Source: a virus (taxonomy: Duplodnaviria > Caudoviricetes). Taken from it: a stretch of DNA of 64,000 nt. The translations under genes and the position numbers were made by a program. A model generated the notes under the pieces. The model was not told the DNA's origin. It saw only the letters and a program-made list of their open reading frames with translations, and searched no databases. The stretch is taken from IMG/VR virus record IMGVR_UViG_3300013126_000031, positions 205 to 64,204 of that record. One strand, written 5' to 3'. Position 1 is the stretch's first letter, and each line of letters starts with the position of its first letter. This document shows, in pieces, positions 3,796 through 35,711 of the stretch.

Positions 3796-3825
3796 AAAAA
3801 AAGGTTGGCGTTTCGGCCAACCTTT
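3796..3825 (-). terminator. attenuator terminator 1
   Basis: AAAGGTTGGC-CGAAAC-GCCAACCTTT followed by U-tract. Confidence 0.85.
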
Positions 3826-3849
3826 AAATCAATATCGTTAAACAGTTTG

Positions 3850-3939
3850 TTAACTTTTGACATGAGTTGACCTTCCTAGGCTAAAATCGGCCTCGGCTGC
3901 AAAGAAATCAAACTCAAATATGTTATTAACTGTTTTCAT
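3850..3939 (-). CDS. leader peptide 1 MKTVNNIFEFDFFAAEADFSLGRSTHVKS (F/E/D/A sensing)
   Basis: 29-aa ORF between promoter and terminator; 12 consecutive F/E/D/A codons. Confidence 0.85.
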   Translation of the reverse strand: MKTVNNIFEFDFFAAEADFSLGRSTHVKS

Positions 3940-3988
3940 CGTTTTTATATTAAATATATTGTTTTTTCTAAAAATTCAATTTATACTA

Positions 3989-4019
3989 CAAATGTACAAC
4001 ATTATTTTTAATTTGTCAA
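3989..4019 (-). promoter_or_regulatory. promoter of attenuator cassette 1
   Basis: TTGACA-N17-TACATTTG, conserved at 5985-6015 and 26160-26190. Confidence 0.75.
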
Positions 4020-5805: not shown

Positions 5806-5835
5806 AAAAAAGGCCCATCGTTTCTGATGAGCCTT
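5806..5835 (-). terminator. attenuator terminator 2
   Basis: AAGGCTCATC-AGAAAC-GATGGGCCTT + U-tract, just upstream of tRNA-Cys. Confidence 0.85.
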
Positions 5836-5861
5836 CATATGTAGTTATAATTAGTTAAACT

Positions 5862-5936
5862 TTAACATACGTAGCCCACCTTGTCTACCACTAGTAAACA
5901 TAACAATAAGGCAATTTGTGTGTATAAAGTTTTCAT
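5862..5936 (-). CDS. leader peptide 2 MKTLYTQIALLLCLLVVDKVGYVC (L/C/V sensing)
   Basis: 24-aa ORF between promoter and terminator; run TTA TTG TTA TGT TTA CTA GTG GTA. Confidence 0.85.
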   Translation of the reverse strand: MKTLYTQIALLLCLLVVDKVGYVC

Positions 5937-5984
5937 AGTTTTTGCTTTTTATAATTAAATATATCTATTTCTTTAAATGTTATA

Positions 5985-6015
5985 CAAATGTACAACATTT
6001 TTTTTGATTTGTCAA
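5985..6015 (-). promoter_or_regulatory. promoter of attenuator cassette 2
   Basis: TTGACA-N17-TACATTTG. Confidence 0.75.
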
Positions 6016-18324: not shown

Positions 18325-18325
18325 C

Positions 18326-19450: not shown

Positions 19451-19515
19451 ACTTTTGATTTTAAATGTTAGACAAATGTAGTAGTAATATTTTAATAAAA
19501 CAAATAAAAGGATGA

Positions 19516-19869
19516 TTATTTTTCATCATCGTTTTTATCGTTATCTTTTTTTCTCATCTTATTGATTTTCTTGACGAACTCTTCATAAGTTTCATCATCT
19601 AATCTTTGATTAAACAAATCCTTTATTGGATTTTGTTCCTCATGCATAGCATCTAATATCTTTTTTGATGAAAACATGGATACCAAGTCCGAAAACTTAA
19701 AAATATCATCATCACCACCAATCAACAAACCACTCATAAAGATTAAAATAGTGCCAACTTGAGCTAATGCTATATCTTTGTTTTCTCTACCTTCATTCAT
19801 TAGAGATTGACCCATTTTCATGAATTTGGCACTCAAATCCAATCTTCTATCGATTTCTTTTCCTTTCAT
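19516..19869 (-). CDS. hypothetical protein
   Basis: ORF. Confidence 0.65.
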   Translation of the reverse strand: MKGKEIDRRLDLSAKFMKMGQSLMNEGRENKDIALAQVGTILIFMSGLLIGGDDDIFKFSDLVSMFSSKKILDAMHEEQNPIKDLFNQRLDDETYEEFVKKINKMRKKDNDKNDDEK

Positions 19870-19904
19870 AAAACTATTTTTAACAAATATACTAAATAAA
19901 ACTA

Positions 19905-20561
19905 TTACTTGCAATAATAACTTGAATCGATTCTGATAGTAACACCATATTTTCTGGATAATGCATCTAACCTAGTATCAAGTTTCTTATCTTCACCGAA
20001 TGTTTCTTCCAATTCACCCATTTCATCAACAAAATAAATCACGTATGAATTATCACCCCATGATTTTCTTACGAACTCAACTTTTATCTCACCTTTGAAA
20101 TGTTCGTTAATCGCTTTTGAAACATCTTCTTTTATAGCTTTAACATCTACATTGTATTTGTATTGAATACCCATGTCATTCATAGATTCAGACACTAATT
20201 TGTTGTATTTACCAAATCTACCGTTCACCAAAACTTCCATTGGTTGCCATTTAACAACATGTGGTTCATTATGGTCTATTGTACCAGAATAATCAGCCAA
20301 ATAAGTGAAACCCATAAAACCATCTTTATGAATTGCAAATATAAGTCTTAGGTTGGTGACATCTAAACCAGTTTCTTCTTTGGTTTCACGAATAGCTGTG
20401 ACTTTAGGGTCTTGACCATCTTCTGGGTCCATCTTACCTCCAGGTAATCCAAAATCATTGTGGTCGTCTTTTCTAGAAACGCCTAAAATATATCCCTCTG
20501 GGTTAATCAAAACTACTTGTGCTGAAACTTTAATATCTTTATCAATCATCATATCTTTCAA
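19905..20561 (-). CDS. Nudix hydrolase
   Basis: PGGKMD...AIRETKEETGL Nudix box. Confidence 0.88.
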   Translation of the reverse strand: MKDMMIDKDIKVSAQVVLINPEGYILGVSRKDDHNDFGLPGGKMDPEDGQDPKVTAIRETKEETGLDVTNLRLIFAIHKDGFMGFTYLADYSGTIDHNEPHVVKWQPMEVLVNGRFGKYNKLVSESMNDMGIQYKYNVDVKAIKEDVSKAINEHFKGEIKVEFVRKSWGDNSYVIYFVDEMGELEETFGEDKKLDTRLDALSRKYGVTIRIDSSYYCK

Positions 20562-20760
20562 ACTTTGTTATTTTTAAATTAGAGTCAATGAAAATATCCG
20601 CAATATTTAATATTTCTCTAACATGGAAAATCTCAGTTTTAACATCACAAAGAATGTTATTATCTGGAACAAATTTTATTTTGTAAAGGTTCCCTTCAAT
20701 CCATAATACCTCAGCATATACTAACCCCCATCCTTTTAAATGTAATTTAACGTCACTCAT
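20542..20760 (-). CDS. hypothetical protein
   Basis: operon ORF. Confidence 0.55.
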   Translation of the reverse strand: MSDVKLHLKGWGLVYAEVLWIEGNLYKIKFVPDNNILCDVKTEIFHVREILNIADIFIDSNLKITKFERYDD

Positions 20761-21689
20761 TGTTTTTTGATTTCAGAAACAACTCCATTAACCATAAATT
20801 TCTTAATGGGTTGCCATTTTGTTATTTGATTACTCATTGCTGGTTTACCACCATCTGGATTAACCGCAATAGTAATGTGTGGTGTTTCATTTTTAGATTG
20901 GTAACCACTAACCTTTACAGCCATAGCCATATCAGATAAACCTAATTCACCAACAGTTAAAGTAACTTGTTTACCTAAATCAGTTTTATCTTTAAGTTCA
21001 CCCAAATTTATTGTCATATGATGAGCAATTACTTTCCACCCCTCTGGTATTCTATCACCAATCATATCTAACAATGTTGTTCTAGATTGATTATCCAACA
21101 ATACACAAGAGTACAACACATCAGATTGTTTGTACATATCTTTCGAGTCTAAAACACTTTTAAGCGTAAGAGGACCTTGAGCTGTATGACTAGCTATCAT
21201 GGCTTCAATCTTTTCTAAAGGTACACCGTGTGCGTTTCTTTTAGCCAACTCAGCTGCCTCTAAACCAGCAGTACCTATATCGACAAATTTAATGTTGTTA
21301 TCAGCATAACCCATTTCCAACGCAGCCACAATATAAGCTTTGGACTCATTTTGTTTTATATTTGTATTGTCTATGATTACTGGACTAATACCAGATTTCA
21401 TAGATGCAATAGCATTCTTTAAATTTGTTGAGTGAGCTCTACTTAATGGTGTAAAATCTTTAGATGCTATCATCTTAGCAAAAAATTCATTGTAATCACC
21501 ACCAGCTTCAATAACATCATCAGTCGAGTGTATTTTACCTTGACCAACAAGTGACTTAGCTTTTGTTGATTTTCCAGCACCTGGGATTCCACGCATAACA
21601 ATGAGTTGTTGATTAGGTTTTGTTACTGTAACACCTAGGATATTTTTGGACATAGATTCCCTTAATATTTGTTTAATATTTTCTTTCAT
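20757..21689 (-). CDS. P-loop polynucleotide kinase fused to 2H cyclic phosphodiesterase (RNA end-healing)
   Basis: GIPGAGKST, IDNTN, RNAHGVP; HHMTI and PHITI motifs. Confidence 0.85.
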   Translation of the reverse strand: MKENIKQILRESMSKNILGVTVTKPNQQLIVMRGIPGAGKSTKAKSLVGQGKIHSTDDVIEAGGDYNEFFAKMIASKDFTPLSRAHSTNLKNAIASMKSGISPVIIDNTNIKQNESKAYIVAALEMGYADNNIKFVDIGTAGLEAAELAKRNAHGVPLEKIEAMIASHTAQGPLTLKSVLDSKDMYKQSDVLYSCVLLDNQSRTTLLDMIGDRIPEGWKVIAHHMTINLGELKDKTDLGKQVTLTVGELGLSDMAMAVKVSGYQSKNETPHITIAVNPDGGKPAMSNQITKWQPIKKFMVNGVVSEIKKQ

Positions 21690-21738
21690 ATCGCAAATGT
21701 ATGGATTATTTTTTAATTAGACAAATTTTTTGATGAAA

Positions 21739-22407
21739 TTATGAATAATATTCATCATAAATGTCTTGGGTTAAGCCGAAATCAACAATAACAATAATAT
21801 CCTCACCATTTCTATTAACAATACCATATGAGTTTAATCTCATTAAATCACCAGCTGGTGAATCAGTATTTAACATAAATTCACAAATAGTTTGTGTAAA
21901 TTGATTTTCATCTAGTATTTCTTTGTGTGCTTCAGTCATATCATAAAAAGGTTTTCTACCTTTGTTTGTTAATTCAAAATTTTTAAGATATCTACCAAAT
22001 TCATCAAAGTTAATACCTTCTAATCTTTGGAAATCAGATTTCTTAACTTTTTTAGCCAACTCCATTTCCACCCATAAATCATCTGGGTGATATTCAATAG
22101 TTCTAGCTAATATTTCATCAAAATAACTATCGCCACCCCATTGTATTTCGGTAGAACATTGAGCCAAACCTTTAGCGTTCTTAGCTAATTTTAATACTTT
22201 GGTATCGTCAACTAAATAAACTATTCTTGATGAACCAGAAGAAATTTTTCTTAAATGCTCATTACAATATTTAATTCTTTGAGTAAAATTTGTTAACGAT
22301 TTAAATTCGTCCATATTAAAACTTGATGGATATTCTTCACTCATGAACCTTTCAATAAGGTTATATGTCATTTCTTCAGAAATTCTTTTTTTAATAAAAT
22401 CTTTCAT
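21739..22407 (-). CDS. protein kinase-like protein
   Basis: SGSSRIVY, VLKLA, GDL...NSYG, IVDFG. Confidence 0.65.
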   Translation of the reverse strand: MKDFIKKRISEEMTYNLIERFMSEEYPSSFNMDEFKSLTNFTQRIKYCNEHLRKISSGSSRIVYLVDDTKVLKLAKNAKGLAQCSTEIQWGGDSYFDEILARTIEYHPDDLWVEMELAKKVKKSDFQRLEGINFDEFGRYLKNFELTNKGRKPFYDMTEAHKEILDENQFTQTICEFMLNTDSPAGDLMRLNSYGIVNRNGEDIIVIVDFGLTQDIYDEYYS

Positions 22408-22441
22408 TGTATTTTTTATTATATTTTTTATTATAAATATC

Positions 22442-23377
22442 TTAATATTTTTGGTTATTTATCTTCATAGCACTTCCATCACTATAAAGGTAAATAATTA
22501 ACCCATTATAGTCACCAGTAACATCTTGACCTAATGTGTTCACTGTTTTAATAACATATGGTTTATCTTTTATTTTTGTATCAACTGAAATAATTTCACT
22601 ATATTCAAACTTACCATCATAATCAGTTTGTTTTAATCTATAATAAGTAATTATTGGTTGTACATTTGTGTCATGGAACTCATAATATAATTGATGTAAA
22701 GAATAACCAGCACCTTCTATATGGTCAACAATATTAAAAACATAACCATCATAGCTTTTTTCAATTGTAAAATAATCGTTGTTGATTTCAGATGCTGTTG
22801 ACCAAAATAAAATATTGGTTTCATTCTCATACTTACCTTTAAAATATAATAATGTAATTGGTAAACCAATTGGTGGTGATTCTACTATTGTAACATCATC
22901 TATATAAATCGATGTCGGACCACCATATACAGTGTTAGCAACTATTTGAAAATACATAACACCAGTATATGATGCTATATAAGTATCACTCCATTCATAC
23001 CACGTTGAAAAATTTGAATTACAGTTTGAATTGGAATAGCTGTCTGAACTTAATAATGTTGTCTGATTAGCAGTTTCATTTGTGTTTATGGTTAAACTAC
23101 AAATTCTTTTAGTCCAAAATGTTATAGTATAAACATACCCATCTTGAACATTAATCGGAATATAAATATATTTACCATTGTTATTTTGAGCACTAGATAA
23201 TCGTAATGCATATGCACCAGAACGTGCGTTTCCAACACCATAATTGCTTATAGCCCACCCAGATGGTGTTGTGGTTAACCAACCACTTGGTGCTGTAGCA
23301 GAAAATTGCTCATTTATTAGCGTTGTTTGACCGAAAGAATATATGGTCATTAACAAGAAAATTATTATCAGTCTCAT
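22442..23377 (-). CDS. secreted Bacteroidota-type protein (CBM-like + LPITL Ig-like module)
   Basis: signal peptide; LPITLLYFKG...WSTASEINNDYF.IEKS...YYRLKQTDYDG. Confidence 0.75.
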   Translation of the reverse strand: MRLIIIFLLMTIYSFGQTTLINEQFSATAPSGWLTTTPSGWAISNYGVGNARSGAYALRLSSAQNNNGKYIYIPINVQDGYVYTITFWTKRICSLTINTNETANQTTLLSSDSYSNSNCNSNFSTWYEWSDTYIASYTGVMYFQIVANTVYGGPTSIYIDDVTIVESPPIGLPITLLYFKGKYENETNILFWSTASEINNDYFTIEKSYDGYVFNIVDHIEGAGYSLHQLYYEFHDTNVQPIITYYRLKQTDYDGKFEYSEIISVDTKIKDKPYVIKTVNTLGQDVTGDYNGLIIYLYSDGSAMKINNQKY

Positions 23378-23432
23378 ATCATATTGTTTATTAATAAATA
23401 CCAATATACTGATAAAAAATTTATTAATCAAG

Positions 23433-23518
23433 AGGAGAGCAGAGGAATCGAACCTCACACCAAAATAGGTGCGTCACGATTAGCAGTCGGACCCTATCGC
23501 CATCAAGGATTACTCTCC
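23433..23518 (-). tRNA. tRNA-Ser(GCT)
   Basis: CGA-CT-GCT-AA-TCG, long variable arm. Confidence 0.8.
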
Positions 23519-23524
23519 ATATTG

Positions 23525-23597
23525 TACACCTATAGGGATTCGAACCCCAACGAATTGCTTAGAAGGTAATTATGCTATCCAGTTACATCATAAGTGC
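23525..23597 (-). tRNA. tRNA-Arg(TCT)
   Basis: ATTAC-CT-TCT-AA-GCAAT. Confidence 0.88.
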
Positions 23598-23606
23598 ATA
23601 TTTTAG

Positions 23607-23679
23607 TAGTTCCCACGAGATTCGAACTCGTACTACAACTTTCGTAGAGTTGGGTGCTAATCCGTTACACCAAGGAACT
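23607..23679 (-). tRNA. tRNA-Arg(ACG)
   Basis: CAACT-CT-ACG-AA-AGTTG. Confidence 0.9.
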
Positions 23680-23701
23680 AAATGTACAAAAAAAGTCAAG
23701 G

Positions 23702-23771
23702 TACCGACCATGAGGTTCGAACTCACTTAATCATCCATATGAGGGACGACCCTTTTCCACTAAGTGTCGGC
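23702..23771 (-). tRNA. tRNA(CAT), probably Ile2; compact D-arm
   Basis: CGTCC-CT-CAT-AT-GGATG; T-arm GTGAG-TTCGAAC-CTCAT. Confidence 0.7.
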
Positions 23772-23779
23772 ATAAAAAT

Positions 23780-23866
23780 AAATGTCGCCAGTTCCTCATG
23801 TCTAGCAATTATGTCTAGACTGTCCTATTGTTTCTGCGTTCTCAATTTCAAACGTTTGGGACATTT
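23780..23866. ncRNA. small structured spacer RNA candidate
   Basis: AAATGTCGCCA...TGGGACATTT inverted ends, internal GTCTAG/CTAGAC hairpin. Confidence 0.35.
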
Positions 23867-23872
23867 ATTTTG

Positions 23873-23974
23873 CTCTTCGGGGGAATTTCGAAATCCCGAC
23901 CTATCGGTTAACACTCCTTGTATGAACTTACTTATCATACCTAGCCGATTGCTCTACCTCTGAGCTACCGAAGA
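23873..23974 (-). tRNA. tRNA-Asn(GTT) with 30-nt insertion/intron at position 33/34
   Basis: ATCGG-CT-[23913-23942]-GTT-AA-CCGAT; rest of cloverleaf intact. Confidence 0.85.
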
Positions 23975-23981
23975 ATAATTA

Positions 23982-24323
23982 TTATAATTTAATTAAACCA
24001 TCATGAACTTCTCTATGACAATTTGAACATAACATGATACATTTATCTAGTTCTGTTTTAACTTTTTCCCAAGACCTAGTATAACCTTTATGCGATATAC
24101 CAAAATCTTTTTCATTAGGATTCAAATGATGAAATTCTAAAGCTCCATTACATCTATCATAACCACAAACTTGACATTTACCACCTTTGTATTCAATAGC
24201 CATTTCTTTTACTTTATCTCGCCTTCTTTGAACAGCATCTACAGCACATTTTTTACATCTATGACCACCATCTTGTCTTAAAACATATTCTGTGAGCCCA
24301 TGTATTTTACATTCTTTTTCCAT
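23982..24323 (-). CDS. HNH endonuclease
   Basis: CQVCG...LEFHH...LCSNCHREVH. Confidence 0.88.
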   Translation of the reverse strand: MEKECKIHGLTEYVLRQDGGHRCKKCAVDAVQRRRDKVKEMAIEYKGGKCQVCGYDRCNGALEFHHLNPNEKDFGISHKGYTRSWEKVKTELDKCIMLCSNCHREVHDGLIKL

Positions 24324-24382
24324 ATATCTTTTATTATAAATATACGGATTAACAAAATAATGTAAACCGTTAATTAAATTTG

Positions 24383-24455
24383 CGGACTACCTTGGATTCG
24401 AACCAAGACCATCGATATTAACAGTATCGAGCACTACCAGTTATGCTAATAGTCC
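24383..24455 (-). tRNA. tRNA-Asn(GTT)
   Basis: CGATA-CT-GTT-AA-TATCG. Confidence 0.9.
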
Positions 24456-24465
24456 ATAATTTTTG

Positions 24466-24537
24466 TTGTCTAACCCAGACTCGAACTGGAAATACTGCCG
24501 TATCAGAGCAGCGTGATAACCATTTCACCATTAGACA
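24466..24537 (-). tRNA. tRNA-Ile(GAT)
   Basis: CTGCT-CT-GAT-AC-GGCAG. Confidence 0.88.
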
Positions 24538-24548
24538 AGATTGTGGAA

Positions 24549-24737
24549 TTACTTCCACTGTGTTTTTCGGTAGTGTTTCCAAGTTTTGTACATTCTAACT
24601 TGATAACTCATTTTATTTCCATAAAACGTAATACCTTCATCCCAATAAATTGGATATAAATCATTGATTAACATGATTCGGTATTGTCTACCATTTTGTG
24701 CTTTGTTCAGTTTTGCTCTGTTAATGTTTACGCTCAT
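24549..24737 (-). CDS. small basic hypothetical protein
   Basis: MSVNINRAKL...TWKHYRKTQWK. Confidence 0.6.
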   Translation of the reverse strand: MSVNINRAKLNKAQNGRQYRIMLINDLYPIYWDEGITFYGNKMSYQVRMYKTWKHYRKTQWK

Positions 24738-24806
24738 AATGTTGTGAGTCTGTGAATAGCAGACCTTACAACATATCAAATTTCTTTTTCATAGTTTTAA
24801 AATTTG

Positions 24807-24893
24807 CGGAAGAGGAGAGATTCGAACTCTCGGAGCCCTTTCGAGCTCGCTGGTTTTCAAGACCAGTGCCATAAACCACTCGGCCACCCTTCC
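24807..24893 (-). tRNA. tRNA-Ser(TGA)
   Basis: CTGGT-CT-TGA-AA-ACCAG, long variable arm, G73. Confidence 0.95.
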
Positions 24894-24904
24894 AGTTTAT
24901 TTAG

Positions 24905-24975
24905 CACAACTATACAGATTCGAACTGTAAACGCTGGTTTTGGAGACCAGAATGATACCATTTCACCATAGTTGT
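24905..24975 (-). tRNA. tRNA-Trp(CCA)
   Basis: CTGGT-CT-CCA-AA-ACCAG. Confidence 0.9.
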
Positions 24976-25022
24976 GTATTTATTAATAACCAATATGTCA
25001 AAGAACATTTTAAGTTCAAAAG

Positions 25023-25095
25023 GGTGATTAACCAGAATCGAACTGGTATCAATAGAATCACAATCTATCATGTTAACCGTTACACCATAACCACC
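25023..25095 (-). tRNA. tRNA-His(GTG)
   Basis: ATAGA-TT-GTG-AT-TCTAT, G-1:C73. Confidence 0.92.
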
Positions 25096-25097
25096 AT

Positions 25098-25676
25098 TTA
25101 TTTATTCTTACCAGCGTATGTTTCAGTCTGTGAATGACAATTAGGGCACATAAAACGTAAATTTTCTATTCTATTATCATTATTTATGCCGTTAATATGG
25201 TCTATTTGTAATATTAACTTACTACCCATCCATTCACCAATATTACCACAACTTACACATTTATACTCTAATAAATTACTTCTTAATACTCTATTCTTCA
25301 AATGACCAGAATTATATTGTGAATTCTCACAAAATATTTCAGAATCACTATATTTTACCTTAGTAACGTTTCTTCTAGGGTTACCTTTATATAAATCATT
25401 ATCTATTTCATATAAATCAAAATACCTTTTTAACGTTCTATAATTTCCAGCTTTTAATGTTAAACCCATTTTTTCTAACACTTCAGCTTTAGAGGTTGAA
25501 GAATCTATCAACGGTTTTAACTCTTCAAAACTCCATTTATGATAATATTTTTTAGGTTTAACATCATATTTATTCGCCCAATATCTTATAGTTGTTAGTG
25601 ATTTATTAGTTCTTTTACTTATTTCTCTTAAAGATAAACCTTCTTTAAGAAGCTTTTCTAAATCTATTTTTTCCAT
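25098..25676 (-). mobile_element. HTH-HNH homing endonuclease
   Basis: N-terminal HTH; CVSCG...IDHING...NLRFMCPNCH. Confidence 0.88.
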
Positions 25677-25733
25677 ATTTATGTTTTTATATAAATATAT
25701 AATAATAGTTCAAAAAGTAAATACCACTTTAAA

Positions 25734-25768
25734 AATCTAGCACTCTAACCAACTGAGCTAACACCACC
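25734..25768 (-). pseudogene. 5' half of a tRNA-His-like gene
   Basis: G-GTGGTGT-TAGCTCAGTTGGTTAGAGTG-CTAGATT, breaks at the anticodon loop. Confidence 0.65.
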
Positions 25769-25942
25769 ATCTATTGTAACAAATATAAGAATGTTACCTT
25801 TTTCTTTTTTAAATCTTAGGTCACCGTTGTAACCCATGTTTATTGCTTTTTGTTTATACTCGTCAACAATGTTGTCAAAGTTTTCTTTGAACTTAGTTGC
25901 TTTGACTTTTCCGAGTGGTCTTACTAATTCTTCTTTACTCAT
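25745..25942 (-). CDS. hypothetical protein
   Basis: 65-aa ORF directly after terminator 3. Confidence 0.55.
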   Translation of the reverse strand: MSKEELVRPLGKVKATKFKENFDNIVDEYKQKAINMGYNGDLRFKKEKGNILIFVTIDGGVSSVG

Positions 25943-25953
25943 AGCATTAAAAT

Positions 25954-25988
25954 AAAAAAGCCTTAGATTTTTTGGTCTAAGGCTTTTT
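25954..25988 (-). terminator. attenuator terminator 3
   Basis: AAAAAGCCTTAGA-loop-TCTAAGGCTTTTTT. Confidence 0.88.
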
Positions 25989-26011
25989 AAATTTATCTTT
26001 AAAATGTTTTA

Positions 26012-26107
26012 TCACTTTGCGATGTCATTTAACATACCTTGACCAGTATGGATGCTATTGCGTCTCCAATTACTAATCGAAATCATATGTATGTTAATTG
26101 TTCTCAT
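26012..26107 (-). CDS. leader peptide 3 MRTINIHMISISNWRRNSIHTGQGMLNDIAK (I/N/H/S/W/R sensing)
   Basis: 31-aa ORF between promoter and terminator; codons 4-20 are all I/N/H/M/S/W/R. Confidence 0.88.
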   Translation of the reverse strand: MRTINIHMISISNWRRNSIHTGQGMLNDIAK

Positions 26108-26159
26108 TGTTTTTTATATTAAATATGTTATTCTTTTAAAAAGTTTTAATTTTATAGTA

Positions 26160-26190
26160 CAAATGTACAAACTATTTTTATATTTGTCAA
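26160..26190 (-). promoter_or_regulatory. promoter of attenuator cassette 3
   Basis: TTGACA-N17-TACATTTG. Confidence 0.75.
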
Positions 26191-26209
26191 GTTTTTTTTA
26201 AATTATTTT

Positions 26210-27004
26210 TTAAAAACCTCTTTCACGTCTAAAAGTATCTTCATCATGTTGTATTTGAACCCATGTAATATAATCCATATCATTACTTAACCCTTGTTTA
26301 ACTGAATCTGATAAACCTTGATAACCATTATTGATATAATTGCTCAGCTCATGGTTTAATTCTAATTCACTATTAACATATCTAGAAATGTACTCTTTCA
26401 TCTGTTCTTGGTCTGGTGTTAACTGACCTAAATCTGATAATTCTGGTTGTTCTTGATATGGGTCTAAACCATATTCAGCACTTCTATGTTGTCTACCAAT
26501 TTCACCCATATCTAATTCATTTTCATTAACAACACCAACATGATATCTTAAAATAAATTGTAAAATTCTTTCAGATGTTTCATCAGCACCTTTATATGTG
26601 TATTTAAATGTAGAATCACCTTCAATAAAAGAACCAGAATGTTTATCATACATTAAGAACGCTATTTTACCACCTTGTGGATTCATTACTTTAAGACCTT
26701 TTACACCGAACTCATTAACTATTTCACCGATAACACCATCTAATTGTTTATCTTCGGTTACTTTATTCATTTCACCAGTCTCTGGATTATATTTACCACG
26801 AGTGTGAAGTGTTCTTATTAAACTAATTGGTTTTCCAATTAATTCATTTAATTTATCTTCGGCTGTTACCGCTTCACTAACTTCATTCTCATCAATACGT
26901 TTGATTTTGTTAAATGTTTTTGCGAATGATTCTAATATAGCTTTTTCTTTATCAGCAATGATAGCTTTTCTTTTTGCTTCAGTTAAAAATTCTTTCTTTT
27001 TCAT
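26210..27004 (-). CDS. hypothetical protein, probable virion/head component
   Basis: LTE/IDE/VNE motifs. Confidence 0.7.
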   Translation of the reverse strand: MKKKEFLTEAKRKAIIADKEKAILESFAKTFNKIKRIDENEVSEAVTAEDKLNELIGKPISLIRTLHTRGKYNPETGEMNKVTEDKQLDGVIGEIVNEFGVKGLKVMNPQGGKIAFLMYDKHSGSFIEGDSTFKYTYKGADETSERILQFILRYHVGVVNENELDMGEIGRQHRSAEYGLDPYQEQPELSDLGQLTPDQEQMKEYISRYVNSELELNHELSNYINNGYQGLSDSVKQGLSNDMDYITWVQIQHDEDTFRRERGF

Positions 27005-27005
27005 A

Positions 27006-28016
27006 TTAATCTGGTTTTATTATTTGAGCAAATGTACCTGGTTCTAGACCAGCTGGAACTACATTTTTATTTAAGTATGAGAATTTTTTATTTTCTCCAT
27101 CAACTTGCATAGCACATCTTATATAAGATATTTTATCTAAATCTAAATTTTTAAAACTATAAAGGTTTTCCACTGCAAATATTTCTTGTGCTGCTTCTTG
27201 GTTTTCCATACTTAATAATCTATATGGCATTTTAGACTCTCTAGATGTTGTATCTAATACATTAAAAAGGAAATTCATTTCTTCTGGTGTTAATTCTTTA
27301 ATTTCACCTTCAAAATTTAAGAAAAATTTACTTTTACCACTTTTAATTGATTCTCTTTTACCATAAATTGCTAATCTTTTTGTACCAGTATCTTGATGTT
27401 GTGAAAATGGTGTGCCTTGAATTGGTTCCCAACCTCTACCTCTTTTATCGTTAACATCTATCTCACCACCTTCTGGCCATTCGATACCGTATTTATCATA
27501 AACACTTTTAACAGCAGCATCTTTATCCGCTTTGCTTCTAATATTACCCCATTGAATTGTGAAATTTTTAGTTGAATACACTTGAGAAGGGATTTTAACA
27601 CCTTTCTCGGTTCTAGGCGCATAAGGGTTTTTAAAACCTTTACCCTTAGCAACAGCAGTTTTCCAAGCATCAGATTCAATCATATGGTTAAAAATCGGAC
27701 TATTTAATTGTCTAGCCATACCTTCAATTTGTGCTAAATTTTCATTTTTAATTGTAACACTAATATCAACTGTATTAACATAACCAACTGTCATAAACCA
27801 ACTATTGTTAGGTTTGTATTTAGAAAACATTTTAAGCAATGTATCAACATTATCTGTTACATCACCAAAAAATTCAGACATTGATATCCTTTCAGCTTCG
27901 TATAAATCTGACTCGTCAACAATGTTTTCTTTTATAATACCTTTTGATTGCAAATATCTTTGCTCAGCCAATAAATTAGCTTTTTGAATGTTTTTTGTTT
28001 TATCAAATCTTCTCAT
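27006..28016 (-). CDS. hypothetical protein, probable virion/head component
   Basis: ATATTTATA upstream; IKE/VDE motifs near the N-terminus. Confidence 0.7.
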   Translation of the reverse strand: MRRFDKTKNIQKANLLAEQRYLQSKGIIKENIVDESDLYEAERISMSEFFGDVTDNVDTLLKMFSKYKPNNSWFMTVGYVNTVDISVTIKNENLAQIEGMARQLNSPIFNHMIESDAWKTAVAKGKGFKNPYAPRTEKGVKIPSQVYSTKNFTIQWGNIRSKADKDAAVKSVYDKYGIEWPEGGEIDVNDKRGRGWEPIQGTPFSQHQDTGTKRLAIYGKRESIKSGKSKFFLNFEGEIKELTPEEMNFLFNVLDTTSRESKMPYRLLSMENQEAAQEIFAVENLYSFKNLDLDKISYIRCAMQVDGENKKFSYLNKNVVPAGLEPGTFAQIIKPD

Positions 28017-28048
28017 TATAATATTTTAATTATAAATATCATAAAAAA

Positions 28049-28492
28049 TTAAAAAATCTGAGCTGTAATATAAACACTTTGTGTTTCTGCTATTAGTTCT
28101 CTTCTCTTCAACCAATCTCCTAAATTGTTAAGTGATTTTAATTGTTGACCCCATATGTAATCAATCTCTAATGTGTTTGGATAATCTTTTAATTTATTAC
28201 CCCAACCTTGACCTCTTACTTCTTCACTAACAGCTATTACAACACCTTCAACACCTTTTAAATTAACATATTTTTCATCTTCAACCAATGAACTTAGCTG
28301 ACTATCCCCTAACAAATAAACACCTTTAATGTCATTGTTTTCATCAACTAGCATAGCTGATATGTCCCAGTTAGATTCTTGTTCCAATATTGCATGGAAA
28401 TAATATTCTGATGTGACATCTTTGAAATATTGAAAAGTCCAAGTTATTAGTTCTTTTCTTCTTTCTTGTGGTATACCTTTAATTAATTTCAT
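28049..28492 (-). CDS. GNAT acetyltransferase-like
   Basis: IAVSEEVRGQGWG acetyl-CoA motif. Confidence 0.7.
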   Translation of the reverse strand: MKLIKGIPQERRKELITWTFQYFKDVTSEYYFHAILEQESNWDISAMLVDENNDIKGVYLLGDSQLSSLVEDEKYVNLKGVEGVVIAVSEEVRGQGWGNKLKDYPNTLEIDYIWGQQLKSLNNLGDWLKRRELIAETQSVYITAQIF

Positions 28493-28958
28493 AACCAGTT
28501 ACTTCAAAAAATTGATAATCTCTCCCTCTCCAAACATAATCTAAATCTTCTTTATCGTATTTTATTTCACCTAACCATGGGTCTTTAACGCTATAAAAAT
28601 TTTCATCACATCCATCAACAATAATCCAATGTGGTATACCTTGTGTAAATGTTCTTAACAAAGGAATATTACCATTATCAATTACAGTTTTAAGTAATTC
28701 AAAAGGATGTGGTGATGATATGTATTCTACATATTTTAATTTTAAAGCATCTAAACCTAAAATCATTTTATCTGGTGGTGTCCCTACCGACCAATCAGTT
28801 GTACAAAGAGTTGCTATGTCCTCAATACTATATTTCATATCAATATCAAACTGAATAGTATTGTTTTTGTTGATGAGGTGATACCAAGCCATATAAATAC
28901 ATGCTGGACCACATGTATTACCAGATGGTTGTTTGAATAGTTTAATAGTTGTCATCAT
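28479..28958 (-). CDS. C39-like cysteine peptidase
   Basis: Q....CGPAC, HWIIV, DPW. Confidence 0.8.
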   Translation of the reverse strand: MMTTIKLFKQPSGNTCGPACIYMAWYHLINKNNTIQFDIDMKYSIEDIATLCTTDWSVGTPPDKMILGLDALKLKYVEYISSPHPFELLKTVIDNGNIPLLRTFTQGIPHWIIVDGCDENFYSVKDPWLGEIKYDKEDLDYVWRGRDYQFFEVTGYEIN

Positions 28959-29337
28959 ATTCATCATCGTAGAAATTTGTACCATATCCATCGTACCCAT
29001 CATCATCGAATTCGTCATCTTCACCATCAAAATCATCATCTTCCTCAACTATCCCTTCTAAAAAATCAATTCCTATGAAAACACCAAAATCATCATTGAA
29101 TAATTTTTTAAGTGTTTTTGAATCCTCAAAAGATACTTCTTTAAAATCAATTTTAGAAAGTAAATCATCCCCATTTGAAAACTCTAATTCATATTCACCA
29201 ATCTTATAAGTGAACGGCCACGTAATACTGTACGCTAATTCTTCATACTCGTCCACTTCTTTTTCAGTGAAAACGGTAAAACCGTTGATTTCAATATCAT
29301 CAACGGTATCATTAAAAATTGCTATAAATTTTGCCAT
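28942..29337 (-). CDS. highly acidic hypothetical protein
   Basis: D/E-rich ORF. Confidence 0.7.
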   Translation of the reverse strand: MAKFIAIFNDTVDDIEINGFTVFTEKEVDEYEELAYSITWPFTYKIGEYELEFSNGDDLLSKIDFKEVSFEDSKTLKKLFNDDFGVFIGIDFLEGIVEEDDDFDGEDDEFDDDGYDGYGTNFYDDEYDDNY

Positions 29338-29389
29338 AATTTTTTTTTAAAACTAAATGTAATGTTATTATTTTAAAAAATAAATATAA

Positions 29390-30505
29390 TCATTTTAAAA
29401 GTTTTTTAAAGTTATCTTTCTCAATACTTTGTATTGCTTTACCCAATTCTGGACCAGGTTTCAATCCCATTTTATCCATAACTTCTGGACCAGTAACACT
29501 TAAACCAAATTTTAAAAACGCATCAACTAACTTTTCATTAATACCTTCTAATTTAGAAAATTTAGTTATTTGCTCTGGTGTTATACCAGAATGTTTTTGT
29601 GCTTTTTTAAGTATAACAGCTGTATCAACAGATAGTTTTAATAACCCAACTAAAAATACAACACCTTTAATTTCTTCGGCTGAGTATTTTAATGTGTTTA
29701 ATTGTTTATTTAACATATCGATATCGTTATGCTTCAATAATGTTGCCAAAATTATAATTGGGTCATTATCCTCAATAAATCTTTTGTCAACTTTTAACCC
29801 TTTAAAGACCCAATCAAATAATCCGTATTTGTCAATCATTTTTAAAAATGATTTAACTGATTTAGCTGATTTTATCCCTTTTAAAAATTCATCTCTAATT
29901 CTTTCACCAGATATACCTTCAAGACTTGCATCTTTTTTTAATGCAGCATCTGTTGATGGGTCTAGCTGATTTCCAAACCTACCAGCAAATCTTATCGCTC
30001 TAAGTATTCTAAGTCTGTCTTCGCCAAATCTATCTTCTGGTGAACCAACTGTTCTTACAACACCATTTTTAAGGTCTTCCACACCACCAACAAGGTCAAC
30101 AACCTCTTGTGTATCTATATCATAAAATAAAGCGTTAATTGTTAAATCACGTCTTTTAACATCGCCTTCTATGTTTGTAAAAGACACAGCGTCTGGTCTT
30201 CTACCACCAGATAAATCATTTCTAAAAGTAGCTACTTCATACTCTCCCATATCAGTAAAAACATTGATAACACCAAAAGCTTTACCAGTTGGTAAAGTTT
30301 TAAGACCAGCTTTAGCCATCATTTCTTCAACCTTGTCTGGTATAGCATCTGTTGCCAAATCGTAGTCTTTAGGTTCTTTACCTAACAACGCATCTCTAAC
30401 AGCACCACCAACAACAAATAATTTAAAACCATTATTTTTAAACACATTAGCTATTTCTAAAATGTCTTTAGGTATTGGTATATCAAATTTAATTCTCTTT
30501 TCCAT
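29390..30505 (-). CDS. cca: CCA-adding tRNA nucleotidyltransferase
   Basis: VGGAVRD, DYD, RRDLTINA, EDRLRILRAIRF. Confidence 0.9.
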   Translation of the reverse strand: MEKRIKFDIPIPKDILEIANVFKNNGFKLFVVGGAVRDALLGKEPKDYDLATDAIPDKVEEMMAKAGLKTLPTGKAFGVINVFTDMGEYEVATFRNDLSGGRRPDAVSFTNIEGDVKRRDLTINALFYDIDTQEVVDLVGGVEDLKNGVVRTVGSPEDRFGEDRLRILRAIRFAGRFGNQLDPSTDAALKKDASLEGISGERIRDEFLKGIKSAKSVKSFLKMIDKYGLFDWVFKGLKVDKRFIEDNDPIIILATLLKHNDIDMLNKQLNTLKYSAEEIKGVVFLVGLLKLSVDTAVILKKAQKHSGITPEQITKFSKLEGINEKLVDAFLKFGLSVTGPEVMDKMGLKPGPELGKAIQSIEKDNFKKLLK

Positions 30506-30599
30506 ACTACAAATGTAATAATATAATTTTAAATATACAAATAAAAATAAAAAAACCCAGACATTAAATCTGGGTTTTTATTTTTTTTTCCGAATTAGA

Positions 30600-31016
30600 T
30601 TAAACCACTTCAACAACTTCTAAATCGAAGATTAAGTCTTTACCAGCCAATGGATGGTTCGCATCCAATACAACTGTGTTCTCTTTAACTTCAGCAACCG
30701 TTACTATAATTGGCCCTTGCGGTCCGTTTGCTGTTAATTGTGCTCCAACTTCAACTCCTTCTGGTACAAATTGTTTTTCCACTTCTTGAGTCATGTCTTC
30801 TCTAACTGGACCATAAGCTTCAGCAGATGGGATAGTGATTGTTTTCTTCTCACCAGCTTTCATACCTTGTAATCCTTGCTCAAAGCCTGGTATTAACATA
30901 CCTTTACCTAACTCAGCTGTTAATGGTTCTCTATCAATAGATGAATCAAAAACTGTGTTATCTTCTAATCTACCAGTGTAATGTACTTTTACAGTACTGT
31001 TTTCGTTTACTGTCAT
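30600..31016 (-). CDS. FKBP-type peptidyl-prolyl isomerase (SlyD/FkpB)
   Basis: VHYTG, FDSS, LIPGFE, DANHPLAGKDL. Confidence 0.93.
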   Translation of the reverse strand: MTVNENSTVKVHYTGRLEDNTVFDSSIDREPLTAELGKGMLIPGFEQGLQGMKAGEKKTITIPSAEAYGPVREDMTQEVEKQFVPEGVEVGAQLTANGPQGPIIVTVAEVKENTVVLDANHPLAGKDLIFDLEVVEVV

Positions 31017-31072
31017 ATTTTACTTTTTAAATTAATTTATTTTAACAAATATACAATTAATATTATTACTTG

Positions 31073-31624
31073 TCAACTATATTTGAAAATAATTTTTCCT
31101 AATCTAATTGCTTTTTCTTTGAATTGTTCATAAGTGCCATTATTTTCAATGATTATGTCAGCACACGATTTGTCAATGTTGAATGAACTAGCATCTTCGT
31201 TAGGTAATCTATCAGATGCATCCACCCAAAGAACCAAATCAAAAATACCTTGTCTTAAACATTCTTCAATCTCATCTCTATCACGCATTCCAACGTAACA
31301 ATCTGAACGTTCTAAAATACCTTTGGCTAATCTAGCTCTATCATTTTTGTTGTAATCACAAATAGCTTCATACCATTCTTGTCTGTGATTTACTCGGTCC
31401 TCAAAACATTCTTCTGGTGTTTTGTAACCATACTTATCTTTCAATAAATCATACAAAAAGATATTTGCAGCTGATTGTGATGATGATTCAAAAGTATAAC
31501 CAAATTCTTCATTGAAAATCTCTGCCAACGAATCCTTTCCGTGGCGCATGTTACCTATAATCAACAATTTAGGTTTACTTTCTTTACCAATTAATCTTTT
31601 TAAGATTTTTGTTTCTACATCCAT
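31073..31624 (-). CDS. P-loop kinase (dNMP kinase-like)
   Basis: GNMRHGKDS, GMR...E, DIIIENNG. Confidence 0.7.
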   Translation of the reverse strand: MDVETKILKRLIGKESKPKLLIIGNMRHGKDSLAEIFNEEFGYTFESSSQSAANIFLYDLLKDKYGYKTPEECFEDRVNHRQEWYEAICDYNKNDRARLAKGILERSDCYVGMRDRDEIEECLRQGIFDLVLWVDASDRLPNEDASSFNIDKSCADIIIENNGTYEQFKEKAIRLGKIIFKYS

Positions 31625-31645
31625 TATATTATTATTATTTAAAGT

Positions 31646-31906
31646 TTAATCCCATTCTAAAATATTTTGGTCACGGTCTTCAATGACACAACGTAACCCT
31701 TTTTCCACATCACAATGATAAGTAATATAATCATTACCTATAACCATACATGTATTAACACCCAACGCTTCATAAAATTTATCACTATCTATTTTGTATT
31801 TTTCTAAAATAAATTCTATCTCACCACTAGTAAACCCTTCTTTATGTTTGGTTTTATAAGTGTCAATAAATAATTCTAAATTTTCACTTGTTAATTTCTT
31901 TACCAT
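31646..31906 (-). CDS. hypothetical protein
   Basis: ORF. Confidence 0.6.
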   Translation of the reverse strand: MVKKLTSENLELFIDTYKTKHKEGFTSGEIEFILEKYKIDSDKFYEALGVNTCMVIGNDYITYHCDVEKGLRCVIEDRDQNILEWD

Positions 31907-32024
31907 CTTTTTCTATTTTTTATTCGACTTTTCTTATTAAGAATAACAATAAGTATTATGAATATAATAAGAATCATTTTTTACAAATTTACATATTTTT
32001 TTGTTATTATGCAAGTATAAAACA

Positions 32025-32051
32025 AAAAAAGCCATCATTTAGATGGCTTTT
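32025..32051 (-). terminator. terminator of the fMet/Y-like RNA cluster
   Basis: AAAAGCCATC-TAAAT-GATGGCTTTTTT. Confidence 0.8.
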
Positions 32052-32059
32052 AATAAGGT

Positions 32060-32137
32060 CAGAATAGTCTTTGTGGAATTGAACCACTAATCAAATTTGC
32101 AATTTAATATTAACCTTAGTTTTGCTGGAACTATTCT
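32060..32137 (-). ncRNA. CWGCAA-stem RNA copy B with anticodon-like loop (GCA) and T-arm
   Basis: AGAATAGTT-CCAGCAA...TTAAA-TTGCAAA-TTTGA...GTGG-TTCAATT-CCAC...GACTATTCT. Confidence 0.7.
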
Positions 32138-32143
32138 TTTTAG

Positions 32144-32214
32144 TAGCGTAGCGTGGAGTCGAACCACCCTTCAAGGTTATGAGCCTCGTGTGCAACCTCT
32201 TACACCATAACGCA
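32144..32214 (-). tRNA. tRNA-fMet-like (CAT), irregular acceptor/T stems
   Basis: CGAGG-CT-CAT-AA-CCTTG, 1-72 mismatch. Confidence 0.75.
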
Positions 32215-32273
32215 ATATATCCTCGGCACCAGTTACGTTACCACTAAGGTAAGAGGCTTTACTGGGCCATTTG

Positions 32274-32345
32274 TAGCGGAAGATGGACTCGAACCACCGA
32301 CCTCAAGGTTATGAGCCTTGCGAGCTTCCTCTGCTCTATTCCGCA
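32274..32345 (-). tRNA. tRNA-fMet(CAT)
   Basis: CAAGG-CT-CAT-AA-CCTTG, T1-T72 mismatch. Confidence 0.9.
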
Positions 32346-32435
32346 ATGTTGTATCCTAGGTTGGCAGTGAGCCAACTATTAAATAGTTGCTTGGCACCCA
32401 TTTAATAAGGACAATTCCTCTAGAATAAGTTTGGC

Positions 32436-32499
32436 CAGAATCTTCTTTTTTACTTTTGTTTTCTGAATAATAGTATAAATAAATTGCTGAATAGATTCT
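32436..32499 (-). ncRNA. CWGCAA-stem RNA copy C (minimal)
   Basis: AGAATCT-ATTCAGCAA...AGATTCT-G. Confidence 0.6.
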
Positions 32500-32519
32500 T
32501 TCTGCCAATAAGTTTATCT

Positions 32520-32779
32520 CAAGATGGTTTTCTTAATATTTTTCATCCCAGCGGATTAACCCTTTTTACGTCTTCGGCTTAGCTTTGGCGAGAGTCTACT
32601 GTTCTTCAACTACATCCTACTCGCACCTATTGGGGTGGTTGTGACGTGATTTTTGTTTTAGTTGGAAACCTAACCAATTTTGTTTAATTCCGTTGTTAAA
32701 GCATGTTTTCACATTTCTAACATACCAATTAAACGAATCATAGTTGTATCTGTTTTTGTTTGGTTGCAGAACCCATCTT
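32520..32779 (-). ncRNA. CWGCAA-stem RNA copy D (long)
   Basis: AAGATGG-GTTCTGCAA...~240 nt...CCATCTT-G. Confidence 0.6.
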
Positions 32780-32894
32780 TTTTAGATAATATTTTTAATA
32801 AGTTAAAGAACGTTGTTTTTAATTATATTACAAATGTACAAATAAATATCTCGTTTGTCAAGTAAAAACCAAAATATTTTTAAAAAAAAATAAA

Positions 32895-33104
32895 TTATTC
32901 TGGTTTTATTGGTTGGTTGAACTCTTCAACCACCACAAACACATAGTGTTTTTTCTCAAGATTGTGTACCACATTTAAAACACGATAATATCTATCGATG
33001 TAAATAAATTCATCCCTTCTTGGTATAATAGTAAATTTAACATCTATTTTTAAAGGTTGCCATTTACTATCCAATAATGTTATATTATATTTTCGTCTAA
33101 ACAT
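32895..33104 (-). CDS. hypothetical protein
   Basis: ORF. Confidence 0.6.
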   Translation of the reverse strand: MFRRKYNITLLDSKWQPLKIDVKFTIIPRRDEFIYIDRYYRVLNVVHNLEKKHYVFVVVEEFNQPIKPE

Positions 33105-33179
33105 GATTAAATATATGATTATTTTTATTATTAGTCAATATTTATAGATAAATAACGAATAACTTAAAACTTAGAAATT

Positions 33180-33767: not shown

Positions 33768-33791
33768 CATAAATAAAAAAGACAGAAAAAA

Positions 33792-33878
33792 ATGGTAAAA
33801 CAAGATTTAAATTTTGGATGCGGATGCGGTAAACCAAAAACTAACACAACAACACCTCCACCACCACCAAGTAAATAA
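33792..33878 (+). CDS. 28-aa GCGCGK peptide
   Basis: MVKQDLNFGCGCGKPKTNTTTPPPPPSK; A-rich upstream region, terminator downstream. Confidence 0.55.
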   Translation: MVKQDLNFGCGCGKPKTNTTTPPPPPSK

Positions 33879-33896
33879 TGTGTTGTTAAAGAAATT

Positions 33897-35710: not shown

Positions 35711-35711
35711 A

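Follow-up and report, generated by a model that had tools for sequence, protein, structure and literature searches.

A probable leader-peptide attenuator in front of a phage tRNA operon, with leader codons that track the tRNAs encoded downstream

We analysed a 64,000-nucleotide stretch of a Caudoviricetes virus, a giant phage of Bacteroidota (positions 205 to 64,204 of IMG/VR record IMGVR_UViG_3300013126_000031; hereafter the window), in which a minus-strand unit at 26190–25954 runs from a Bacteroidota-type promoter through a 31-codon open reading frame (ORF) to an intrinsic terminator, with a cluster of tRNA genes further downstream. Judged from its sequence and predicted RNA folds, this unit is most probably a transcription attenuator of the ribosome-mediated (leader-peptide) kind, placed before a tRNA operon of the phage. 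Such an attenuator had been proposed in an earlier sequence-only reading of the same DNA, and the proposal is supported by the repeated architecture, by paralogues whose leaders match the class of their tRNAs, by a fourth class found in relatives, by covariation, by a fold model and by an independent phage lineage. The features of the unit and of its surroundings are listed in Table 1.

Codons 4–20 of the leader (26098–26048) read exactly as the sequence-only reading had listed them, and both serine boxes and both arginine boxes are represented, matching the tRNAs of the cluster. Codons that can be read by the anticodons of the cluster make up 27.3% of the codons in the 53 long ORFs of the window. 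Against this background the probability of 17 such codons in a row, which had been left to be calculated, is 2.6e-10, and about 3e-5 runs of this kind are expected in the 64-kb window. A six-frame scan of the 64 kb gave the same picture, the leader run being the longest made of the amino acids of the cluster (17 codons, the next being 11). Codons 4–6 (ATT AAC ATA) are part of a start motif, M-K/R-T-I-N, common to leaders of other classes, and they also form one strand of a predicted hairpin, so that the effective sensor may be closer to 14 codons; with this conservative length 0.0017 runs are expected in the window. The sensor observation is real and far beyond chance.

The promoter is best recognised by a specific 13-mer, TTGTACATTTGTA, which contains the motif TAnnTTTG, presumably the −7 consensus of the Bacteroidota sigma-A factor. 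With at most one mismatch the 13-mer occurs at 10 sites in the window, against 0.44 expected, and some of these sites precede protein genes. A generic sigma-70 promoter scan of the window was at chance level (42 matches against 45.2 expected) and is uninformative here; it is the specific 13-mer, not a generic sigma-70 match, that appears to be the real promoter signal. No Shine-Dalgarno sequence was found in the 5′ untranslated region (UTR) of the leader at 26108–26157, and the leader unit matched no Pfam or Rfam family. One Rfam match, to RnaG at 25941–26036, scored 25.9 bits (gathering score 153; E = 0.85) and was set aside as chance. The window also encodes a sigma-70 family factor (58761–59585, minus strand) and a GAF-PAS histidine kinase (48734–50491, minus strand); the former may read the conserved CTTGACAAAT...TTGTACATTTGTA promoters.

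After the ORF and a 27-nt spacer, the arms 25984–25976 and 25967–25959 are predicted to form the terminator hairpin, followed by a T-run that ends at 25954. As had been noticed beforehand, a segment within the ORF, CUGGUCAAGGU (26046–26036), can pair with the 5′ arm of the terminator, AGCCUUAGACCA (25984–25973), over 10 pairs with one bulge. The predicted energy of this duplex is −13.1 kcal/mol, which is matched by 1% of 300 codon shuffles. The ORF is also predicted to fold on itself, in both the minimum free energy (MFE) and the centroid structure, at −21.8 kcal/mol (z = −2.5; 5 of 200 shuffles were as good). In this fold segment 1 would sequester segment 2, through pairing of UUAACAUAC with GUAUGUUAA and of GAUUAGUA with UACUGGUC, and the same hairpin also appears in folds of relatives. 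The z-score of the fold of the whole leader is −5.9.

We modelled the effect of translation by folding the RNA with a 30-nt mask in place of the ribosome, its A site stepped along the leader codons. With the mask at codons 3–17 the antiterminator is predicted to exist before segment 4 is made, and with the mask at codons 18–32 there is none. In the window leader the antiterminator appears in this model only when the ribosome masks segment 1. Of the nine units whose truncated transcripts were folded with nothing masked, eight formed the antiterminator all the same.

The promoter, UTR and ORF start recur six times in the record. In three copies, the unit at 25954–26190 and units A and B of Table 1, a short ORF and a terminator follow. 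The tRNA clusters of the window define three sets of amino acids, INHMSWR (class I), FEDA (class II) and LVC (class III), and the leaders follow them. Leader A, MKTVNNIFEFDFFAAEADFSLGRSTHVKS, contains the longest six-frame run of set II in the window (12 codons, the next being 8), and leader B, MKTLYTQIALLLCLLVVDKVGYVC, ties for the longest run of set III (8 codons). The gene for tRNA-Ala(TGC) at 2556–2630, required by the alanine codons of leader A, was recognised only afterwards.

Relatives were recovered by pattern and protein scans of IMG/VR. CheckV completeness values of 4–39% for pieces of 14–137 kb suggest genomes of roughly 350 kb. One relative (G006) has a leader reading MKTTTTYTGKQYPQGKQG... 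ahead of tRNAs for Pro, Gln, Tyr, Thr, Gly, Gly, Lys, Lys and Lys; the composition of this fourth-class leader (Thr/Tyr/Gly/Lys/Gln/Pro) was predicted from the tRNA list alone and then confirmed. The four sets INHMSWR, FEDA, LVC and TYGKQP together partition all 20 amino acids. A search of IMG/VR for the pattern of promoter, UTR and start gave 38 matches in 35 stretches, of which 35 matches were processed, the other three having been read earlier. All 35 processed matches lead into an ORF of 24–33 codons followed by a hairpin and a T-run, and tRNAs follow in 31, with three further loci ending too soon to tell. The same pattern gave 26 matches in 185,579 cellular genomes, none of them such a unit.

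From the 52 units collected we obtained 37 unique peptides, 34 of which have at least three tRNAs downstream. In all 34 of these non-redundant units the class assigned by the tRNAs is the class assigned by the leader, and none of 20,000 shuffles of the cluster assignments reached the observed mean run. The ORF keeps a length of 24–34 codons and a conserved frame across the 37 distinct sequences and eight units of huge phages (see below). Within the run the order of residues varies freely among orthologues while the composition is kept, most clearly in class IV, where versions of the leader read TTTTYTGKQYPQGKQG, TTTTYKTQYQPKGGKPQ, TTVTTYQPKQTQGGKP and TTYMTYQPKQYTKGGQPQ. Of the aligned residues that differ, 34 of 56 in class I (background 0.29) and 27 of 39 in class IV (background 0.32) remain members of the set. 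Selection appears to act on codon identity, not on the peptide.

The terminators and their putative partners in the ORF change together. Clean terminators were found in 17 of 17 units of the first set examined (−9.9 to −17.1 kcal/mol), and a hairpin followed by a T-run is present in all 37 distinct leader–terminator sequences. Among these, the strongest pairing predicted for the ORF with the 5′ arm falls for the most part at codons 19–26, right after the run. Since the terminators were out of register in a MAFFT alignment of 10 class-I leaders, covariation was measured by duplexes computed sequence by sequence, with non-cognate arms as the control for cognate ones. Cognate duplexes averaged −13.2 kcal/mol against −9.1 kcal/mol for non-cognate ones, and none of 10,000 permutations reached the cognate mean. 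The changes are compensatory in all three strands (segments 2, 3 and 4), as in CCGACUCAG with UGAGUCGG, CCGAUUCAG with UGAAUCGG, CCGACUCU with AGAGUCGG and CCUGAUUC with GAAUCAGG. At the level of sequence, the comparison establishes the parts of the unit, their conservation, the tracking of tRNA identity by the leader codons and the covariation of segments 2, 3 and 4.

An independent lineage provides a further comparison. The nearest deposited relatives of the CCA-adding enzyme of the window (37–39% identity) are encoded by two uncultured huge phages, LR745206.1 (0.63 Mb) and LR756502.1 (0.64 Mb), with 61 and 50 tRNA matches, respectively. Their tRNAs are grouped differently, as FHKRSW, AEGIMY, ILMNRTV and DPQ, and a short leader ORF with a terminator precedes each of the eight clusters examined, its composition tracking the local grouping. 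In one leader, MTTMNLNMTMNLTLNVVNITLCNIR, 20 of the 21 residues belong to its own set; others read MRTINKHKHFSKLNKWFSNHRF..., ...NPQPQDQDP... and ...IETIGYTGYEGAY..., the last using ATA codons alongside a tRNA-Ile(TAT) in its cluster. In six of the eight leaders the longest run belongs to the own set.

In many leaders a small conserved GC hairpin stands just before the start codon (L061, L062, L064, L099, L100 and L161–L169), with the sequence GGGGAAACCC in the 350-kb clade and a AAGGGACAATTCCTT-like sequence in the 0.6-Mb phages. It may be a pause, processing or ribosome standby site.

On the mechanism that we propose, transcription would start at the conserved phage promoter and a ribosome would translate the 31-codon leader, of which codons 4 to about 20 are those read by the tRNAs encoded downstream. 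If any tRNA of the cluster were scarce or uncharged, the ribosome would stall within the run and hold segment 1 open. Segment 2 (codons 21–24), being freed, would then pair with the 5′ arm of the terminator, and RNA polymerase would read on into the tRNA genes. With plentiful tRNAs the ribosome would run over segment 2, the terminator hairpin would form and transcription would stop at 25954. Lack of translation would have the same outcome, through pairing of segment 1 with segment 2. Each tRNA operon would in this manner be under negative feedback from its own products, with OR logic across the tRNA species of the block, and the phage would probably step up a tRNA block only during a shortage of the tRNAs in it. 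Leader translation, stalling, conditional read-through and tRNA supply as the signal are what we infer from the sequences.

Several observations weigh against this reading. In the fold model the terminator wins at equilibrium in nearly all modelled states, so that the choice between the two structures must be kinetic, and in several relatives the antiterminator is predicted to re-form with the ribosome on the stop codon. The MFE fold of the window leader without segment 4 keeps the hairpin of segments 1 and 2 and not the antiterminator, as would be expected of an attenuator that is off by default. The antiterminators of class II (Phe/Glu/Asp/Ala) are weak, with codon-shuffle fractions of 0.093, 0.45 and 0.25, and substitutions within the set are not enriched in class II (5 of 16) or class III (6 of 45). 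Some cluster tRNAs are missing from their leaders (Pro in L109, Cys in L122, Met in L131, Ser-CGA in G007 and Asn in L103), and one orthologous leader (G008, L133) is followed by no tRNA over the next 4.4 kb. The sampling of a CAT tRNA by the window leader, claimed in the sequence-only reading as either Ile2 or Met, holds in so far as a CAT tRNA is present; as the single one of the cluster, it is unable to decode both ATG and ATA. Among the eight leaders of the huge phages the own set ties for the longest run in one and loses in another, the FHKRSW leader contains Asn, and no tRNA-Cys was found for the Cys codon of two ILMNRTV leaders, even at relaxed ARAGORN thresholds; the idea that this codon marks a tRNA-Cys gene missed at default settings was not confirmed by that search. 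The units are related by descent, and the concordance in 34 of 34 units therefore represents few independent events, namely four classes and four in the other lineage. In the window unit itself, about 860 nt with the 65-amino-acid ORF and the HNH endonuclease ORF separate the terminator from the first tRNA gene, and an internal promoter is therefore possible there; the one TAnnTTTG match in this gap, at 25787, is at chance level.

The terminator might instead be a constitutive or protein-controlled insulator between operons, with the leader ORF serving, for example, mRNA stability, processing or ribosome titration and the tRNAs transcribed from elsewhere. The hairpin is bidirectional and also stands downstream of converging sequence, and in relatives some leaderless tRNAs, a tRNA-CTA (L056) and a Phe tRNA (G007), lie behind the same promoter. 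However, in many units the first tRNA begins 3–16 nt past the T-run, which leaves no room for another promoter, and in a 13-mer scan of the window the conserved promoter did not recur between terminator and cluster. A constitutive terminator would also need no antiterminator that co-varies with it, and we regard an insulator as very improbable. Less credible still is that the units are ordinary small protein genes, or a small RNA, with a constitutive terminator, and that the likeness to the tRNA sets is coincidence or compositional bias. A promoter, some 200 nt and a terminator are the anatomy of a small gene too, and the promoter copy before the transfer-messenger RNA (tmRNA) gene drives a 44-amino-acid ORF that resembles a conserved small protein and has no terminator. 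Against it stand run probabilities of 3e-5 to 2e-3 per window for runs that are six-frame extremes, the complete class concordance, the co-variation of the in-ORF segment with the terminator and the lack of a match in the Pfam and Rfam scans of the unit; moreover, the order is shuffled and the composition kept, the reverse of the pattern expected if a folded peptide were under selection.

The alternative that comes closest keeps the same attenuator hardware and changes the signal to amino-acid supply or tRNA charging, coupling tRNA output to host nutrition. A stalled ribosome cannot distinguish an absent tRNA from an uncharged one, and the architecture is identical to that of amino-acid attenuators, but more tRNA transcription would not relieve a lack of amino acids. 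Moreover, the sensor sets match lineage-specific and arbitrary groupings of tRNA operons, not any biosynthetic or metabolic grouping, and codon choice follows isoacceptors, with ATA accompanying Ile-TAT and both Ser and both Arg boxes accompanying both tRNAs. These last two points argue, without proving it, for tRNA supply as the signal, and we consider amino-acid supply an unlikely one.

Beyond the single unit, we lean towards the view that Bacteroidota huge phages run a multi-channel, demand-driven tRNA supply. In such a scheme every tRNA operon would be autoregulated by a leader carrying a ‘barcode’ of codons for its own tRNAs, any one shortage would open the operon, and the sensors would evolve by duplication and re-coding as tRNA genes move between operons. 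The shortage could stem from a mismatch in codon usage, from host shut-off or from host anticodon-nuclease defences; the co-located tRNA repair genes (see below) suggest the last of these.

Table 1. Coordinates of the leader unit, its paralogues and the downstream features in the window
Feature	Position	Strand	Remarks
−33 promoter element, TTGAC within CTTGACAAAT	26186..26190	−	Kept in paralogous and orthologous copies
−7 promoter core, 13-mer TTGTACATTTGTA	26158..26170	−	Invariant in alignment of copies
5′ UTR, A-rich, with conserved block ATATTTAAT...AAAAAC-ATG	26108..26157	−	Common to the 3.9-kb and 5.9-kb units and orthologues
Leader ORF, 31 codons and stop, MRTINIHMISISNWRRNSIHTGQGMLNDIAK	26012..26107	−	Frame kept in 12 distinct class-I peptides
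Sensor run, codons 4–20, I N I H M I S I S N W R R N S I H	26048..26098	−	Longest class-I six-frame run
Segment 1, 5′ strand of in-ORF hairpin, UUAACAUAC (26097–26089) and GAUUAGUA (26078–26071)	26071..26097	−	MFE and centroid fold
Segment 2, UACUGGUC and GUAUGUUAA for pairing with segment 1, CUGGUCAAGGU (26046–26036) for pairing with terminator 5′ arm	26029..26048	−	Duplex and fold predictions
Segment 3, terminator 5′ arm AGCCUUAGA and first loop bases CCA	25973..25984	−	Hairpin prediction
Segment 4, terminator 3′ arm UCUAAGGCU and T-run	25954..25967	−	Predicted hairpin of −11.7 kcal/mol, then TTTTT
65-amino-acid ORF between terminator and tRNAs	25745..25942	−	Conserved in relatives, no Pfam family
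HNH endonuclease ORF	25098..25676	−	Pfam HNH and HNH_3
tRNA cluster, in the order His-GTG, Trp-CCA, Ser-TGA, Ile-GAT, Asn-GTT, interrupted tRNA-like gene, CAT, Arg-ACG, Arg-TCT, Ser-GCT	23433..25094	−	
Second HNH-like ORF	23982–24323		Adjoins the interrupted tRNA-like gene
Unit A: promoter, leader MKTVNNIFEFDFFAAEADFSLGRSTHVKS (3939–3850), terminator (3823–3796)	3796..4019	−	Upstream of Phe, Glu, Asp and Ala-TGC tRNAs (3011–2556)
Unit B: promoter, leader MKTLYTQIALLLCLLVVDKVGYVC (5936–5862), terminator (5834–5806)	5806..6015	−	Directly upstream of Cys, Val, Leu-TAA and Leu-TAG tRNAs (5798–5072)

The cluster downstream of the unit had been put at 11 tRNAs, which is slightly high. ARAGORN with default settings finds seven (His, Trp, Ser-TGA, Ile-GAT, Asn, Arg-ACG and Arg-TCT). 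To these are added a Ser-GCT tRNA (23433–23519), seen only as a sub-threshold Rfam match and at a lowered ARAGORN threshold, and a CAT tRNA (23702–23771), which scores 26.9 bits, below the Rfam cut-off of 29, and whose anticodon loop was read by eye. At 23870–23975 (minus strand) lies a tRNA-like gene interrupted by 30 nt inserted into the anticodon loop; when introns are allowed, ARAGORN calls the gene Asn(att). The count is thus nine anticodons and one interrupted gene. Directly downstream of the cluster is a 338-amino-acid ORF (22442–23458, minus strand) without a Pfam match; its C-terminal region, compared by eye, has what we take to be a resemblance to the secretion-sorting (T9SS-type) domain of Bacteroidota.

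Of the two ORFs that separate the terminator from the cluster, the HNH endonuclease ORF is probably a mobile insertion; it is missing from those orthologous units in which tRNA-Trp follows within about 60 nt of the terminator. Beside this ORF (25676–25098) we observed the 5′ half of a tRNA-Lys(TTT)-like gene (25733–25770, minus strand), with acceptor strand, D arm and anticodon stem-loop, which ends abruptly there and overlaps the 3′ end of the 65-amino-acid ORF; the same junction is found in two relatives (L008 and L015). We considered whether this half (25770–25733) could be one exon of a gene that an HNH-bearing intron has split. Before tRNA-His no 3′ half was found, and the piece was left as a fragment.

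Searches beyond these relatives returned little. A search for orthologues of units A and B in G001–G005 gave only matches to the promoter or cross-matches to class I, because those contigs end too early. A megablast search of 23000–28000 against deposited phages matched only a tRNA-Ser in cyanophages. With the upstream 264-amino-acid protein as query, tblastn gave no match, and no cultured relative was found. A search of sequencing runs for the locus listed no RNA run. In three relatives a tRNA with the anticodon CTA (amber suppressor type; ‘Pyl’ in ARAGORN) lies directly behind the promoter without a leader (L056, 1955–2026; L060, 477–548; L065, 3255–3330), and the window has CAT tRNAs in the corresponding region. 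The CTA tRNA may hint at a reassignment of a stop codon in part of the clade.

Other copies of the promoter in the window lead to different arrangements. The copy within 34733–34961 (minus strand) drives the conserved 44-amino-acid ORF (MNTVKFINNSVFLNLENETLEY...), which ends about 30 nt before the tmRNA gene (34732–34378). No terminator separates the ORF from that gene, and its 5′ UTR contains a small hairpin; the same arrangement occurs in L007, L013 and L022. The ORF looks like a genuine small-protein gene or like a tmRNA leader of another type. Another copy (32841–32829, within 32346–32841, minus strand) is followed by two tiny ORFs (MGSATKQKQIQL and MIRLIGMLEM). Some 350 nt of GC-richer, structured-looking RNA, which matched no Rfam family, then lie between these and two tRNA-Met(CAT) genes. 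A further tRNA, at 988–1066 (minus strand; 41.4 bits in Rfam), has an anticodon loop of eight bases with the four-base anticodon ‘ttta’, and may be a tRNA of the +1 frameshift type, an unusual Lys tRNA or a false call.

The window is rich in genes for the maintenance of tRNA and other RNA, encoding a CCA-adding enzyme, two RNA ligases, a polynucleotide kinase (PNK)-like protein, RlaP and a tmRNA, and it also encodes ClpP, DnaJ and its own sigma factor. This neighbourhood fits a phage that invests in sustained translation. An island of RNA-repair and tRNA-maintenance genes (7489–21689 and 29393–30505, minus strand) comprises the RlaP nucleotidyltransferase, a PARP-domain protein, Rnl2-like and T4 Rnl1-like RNA ligases, an ATP-dependent DNA ligase, a PNK/CPD-like kinase and the CCA-adding enzyme, which suggests a counter-measure to tRNA cleavage by the host.

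It has long been asked how tRNA levels are sensed and set. Bacterial tRNA genes are thought to be controlled mainly at their promoters, by growth rate and the stringent response. The role of the large tRNA sets of phages is debated, with compensation for codon usage and escape from tRNA depletion by the host as the two views. If our reading is right, these units would be the first known case of leader-peptide attenuation of tRNA genes and of product-sensing feedback on tRNA levels. They would amount to a direct sensor of the availability of individual tRNAs that can be read from the sequence and is wired to the genes that make them. The phage itself would then declare which tRNAs are limiting and how they are grouped, and each tRNA block could be linked, in a testable way, to translational demand or to a host defence that targets tRNA. 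The units would also display the re-programming of an attenuator in evolution, one chassis with at least eight codon barcodes, and would offer a modular part for tRNA-responsive genetic switches. The comparative signal is strong enough for rule-based annotation by short ORF, terminator, downstream tRNAs and matching composition.

In the openly available full-text literature (subscription journals being outside the scope of the search), we found no account of tRNA genes, or of the tRNA clusters of phages, being controlled by a leader peptide. The phage tRNA blocks described here resemble those of T4, T5 and huge phages in lying beside enzymes of tRNA repair and maturation; to our knowledge those clusters are described as being under ordinary promoters, and no leader-peptide sensor has been described for them. 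T-box riboswitches bind uncharged tRNA directly, without a ribosome, by means of stem I, a specifier loop and the T-box sequence, and they control aminoacyl-tRNA synthetase and amino-acid genes, with one tRNA per element. Like these Gram-positive elements, the phage units would be terminator/antiterminator switches in a 5′ leader in which a codon-like specifier serves to read the state of a given tRNA. Rfam scans of 20000–36000 and 1–7200 (E up to 1) found no T-box or amino-acid leader family.

The closest parallels are the classical leader-peptide attenuators of enterobacteria (trp, his, leu, thr, ilv and pheA), each with a run of one or two amino acids. Leader-peptide attenuators of amino-acid biosynthetic operons have been treated by Elf and Ehrenberg (PMC1183508). 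The phage units share with the trp and his type a short leader ORF with regulatory codons, four segments that are here predicted to form mutually exclusive 1:2, 2:3 and 3:4 hairpins, the position of the ribosome as the putative switch, and an intrinsic terminator before the first controlled gene. They differ in that they would control tRNAs in place of biosynthetic enzymes or aminoacyl-tRNA synthetases, so that the molecule sensed would be the product of the operon itself. The sensor, moreover, is a mixed barcode of three to seven amino acids covering several isoacceptor boxes, and the units are phage-borne, occur in at least four paralogous copies with diversified sensors and match no leader family in Rfam. 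In E. coli, the pheST attenuator, with its pheM leader, controls phenylalanyl-tRNA synthetase. It likewise places a component of the translation apparatus, not a biosynthetic enzyme, behind a leader peptide, but it is cellular, controls a synthetase and senses a single amino acid. The mechanism of the phage units thus appears to be classical ribosome-mediated attenuation, and what appears to be new is the tRNA operon as its target and a sensor for several amino acids at once.

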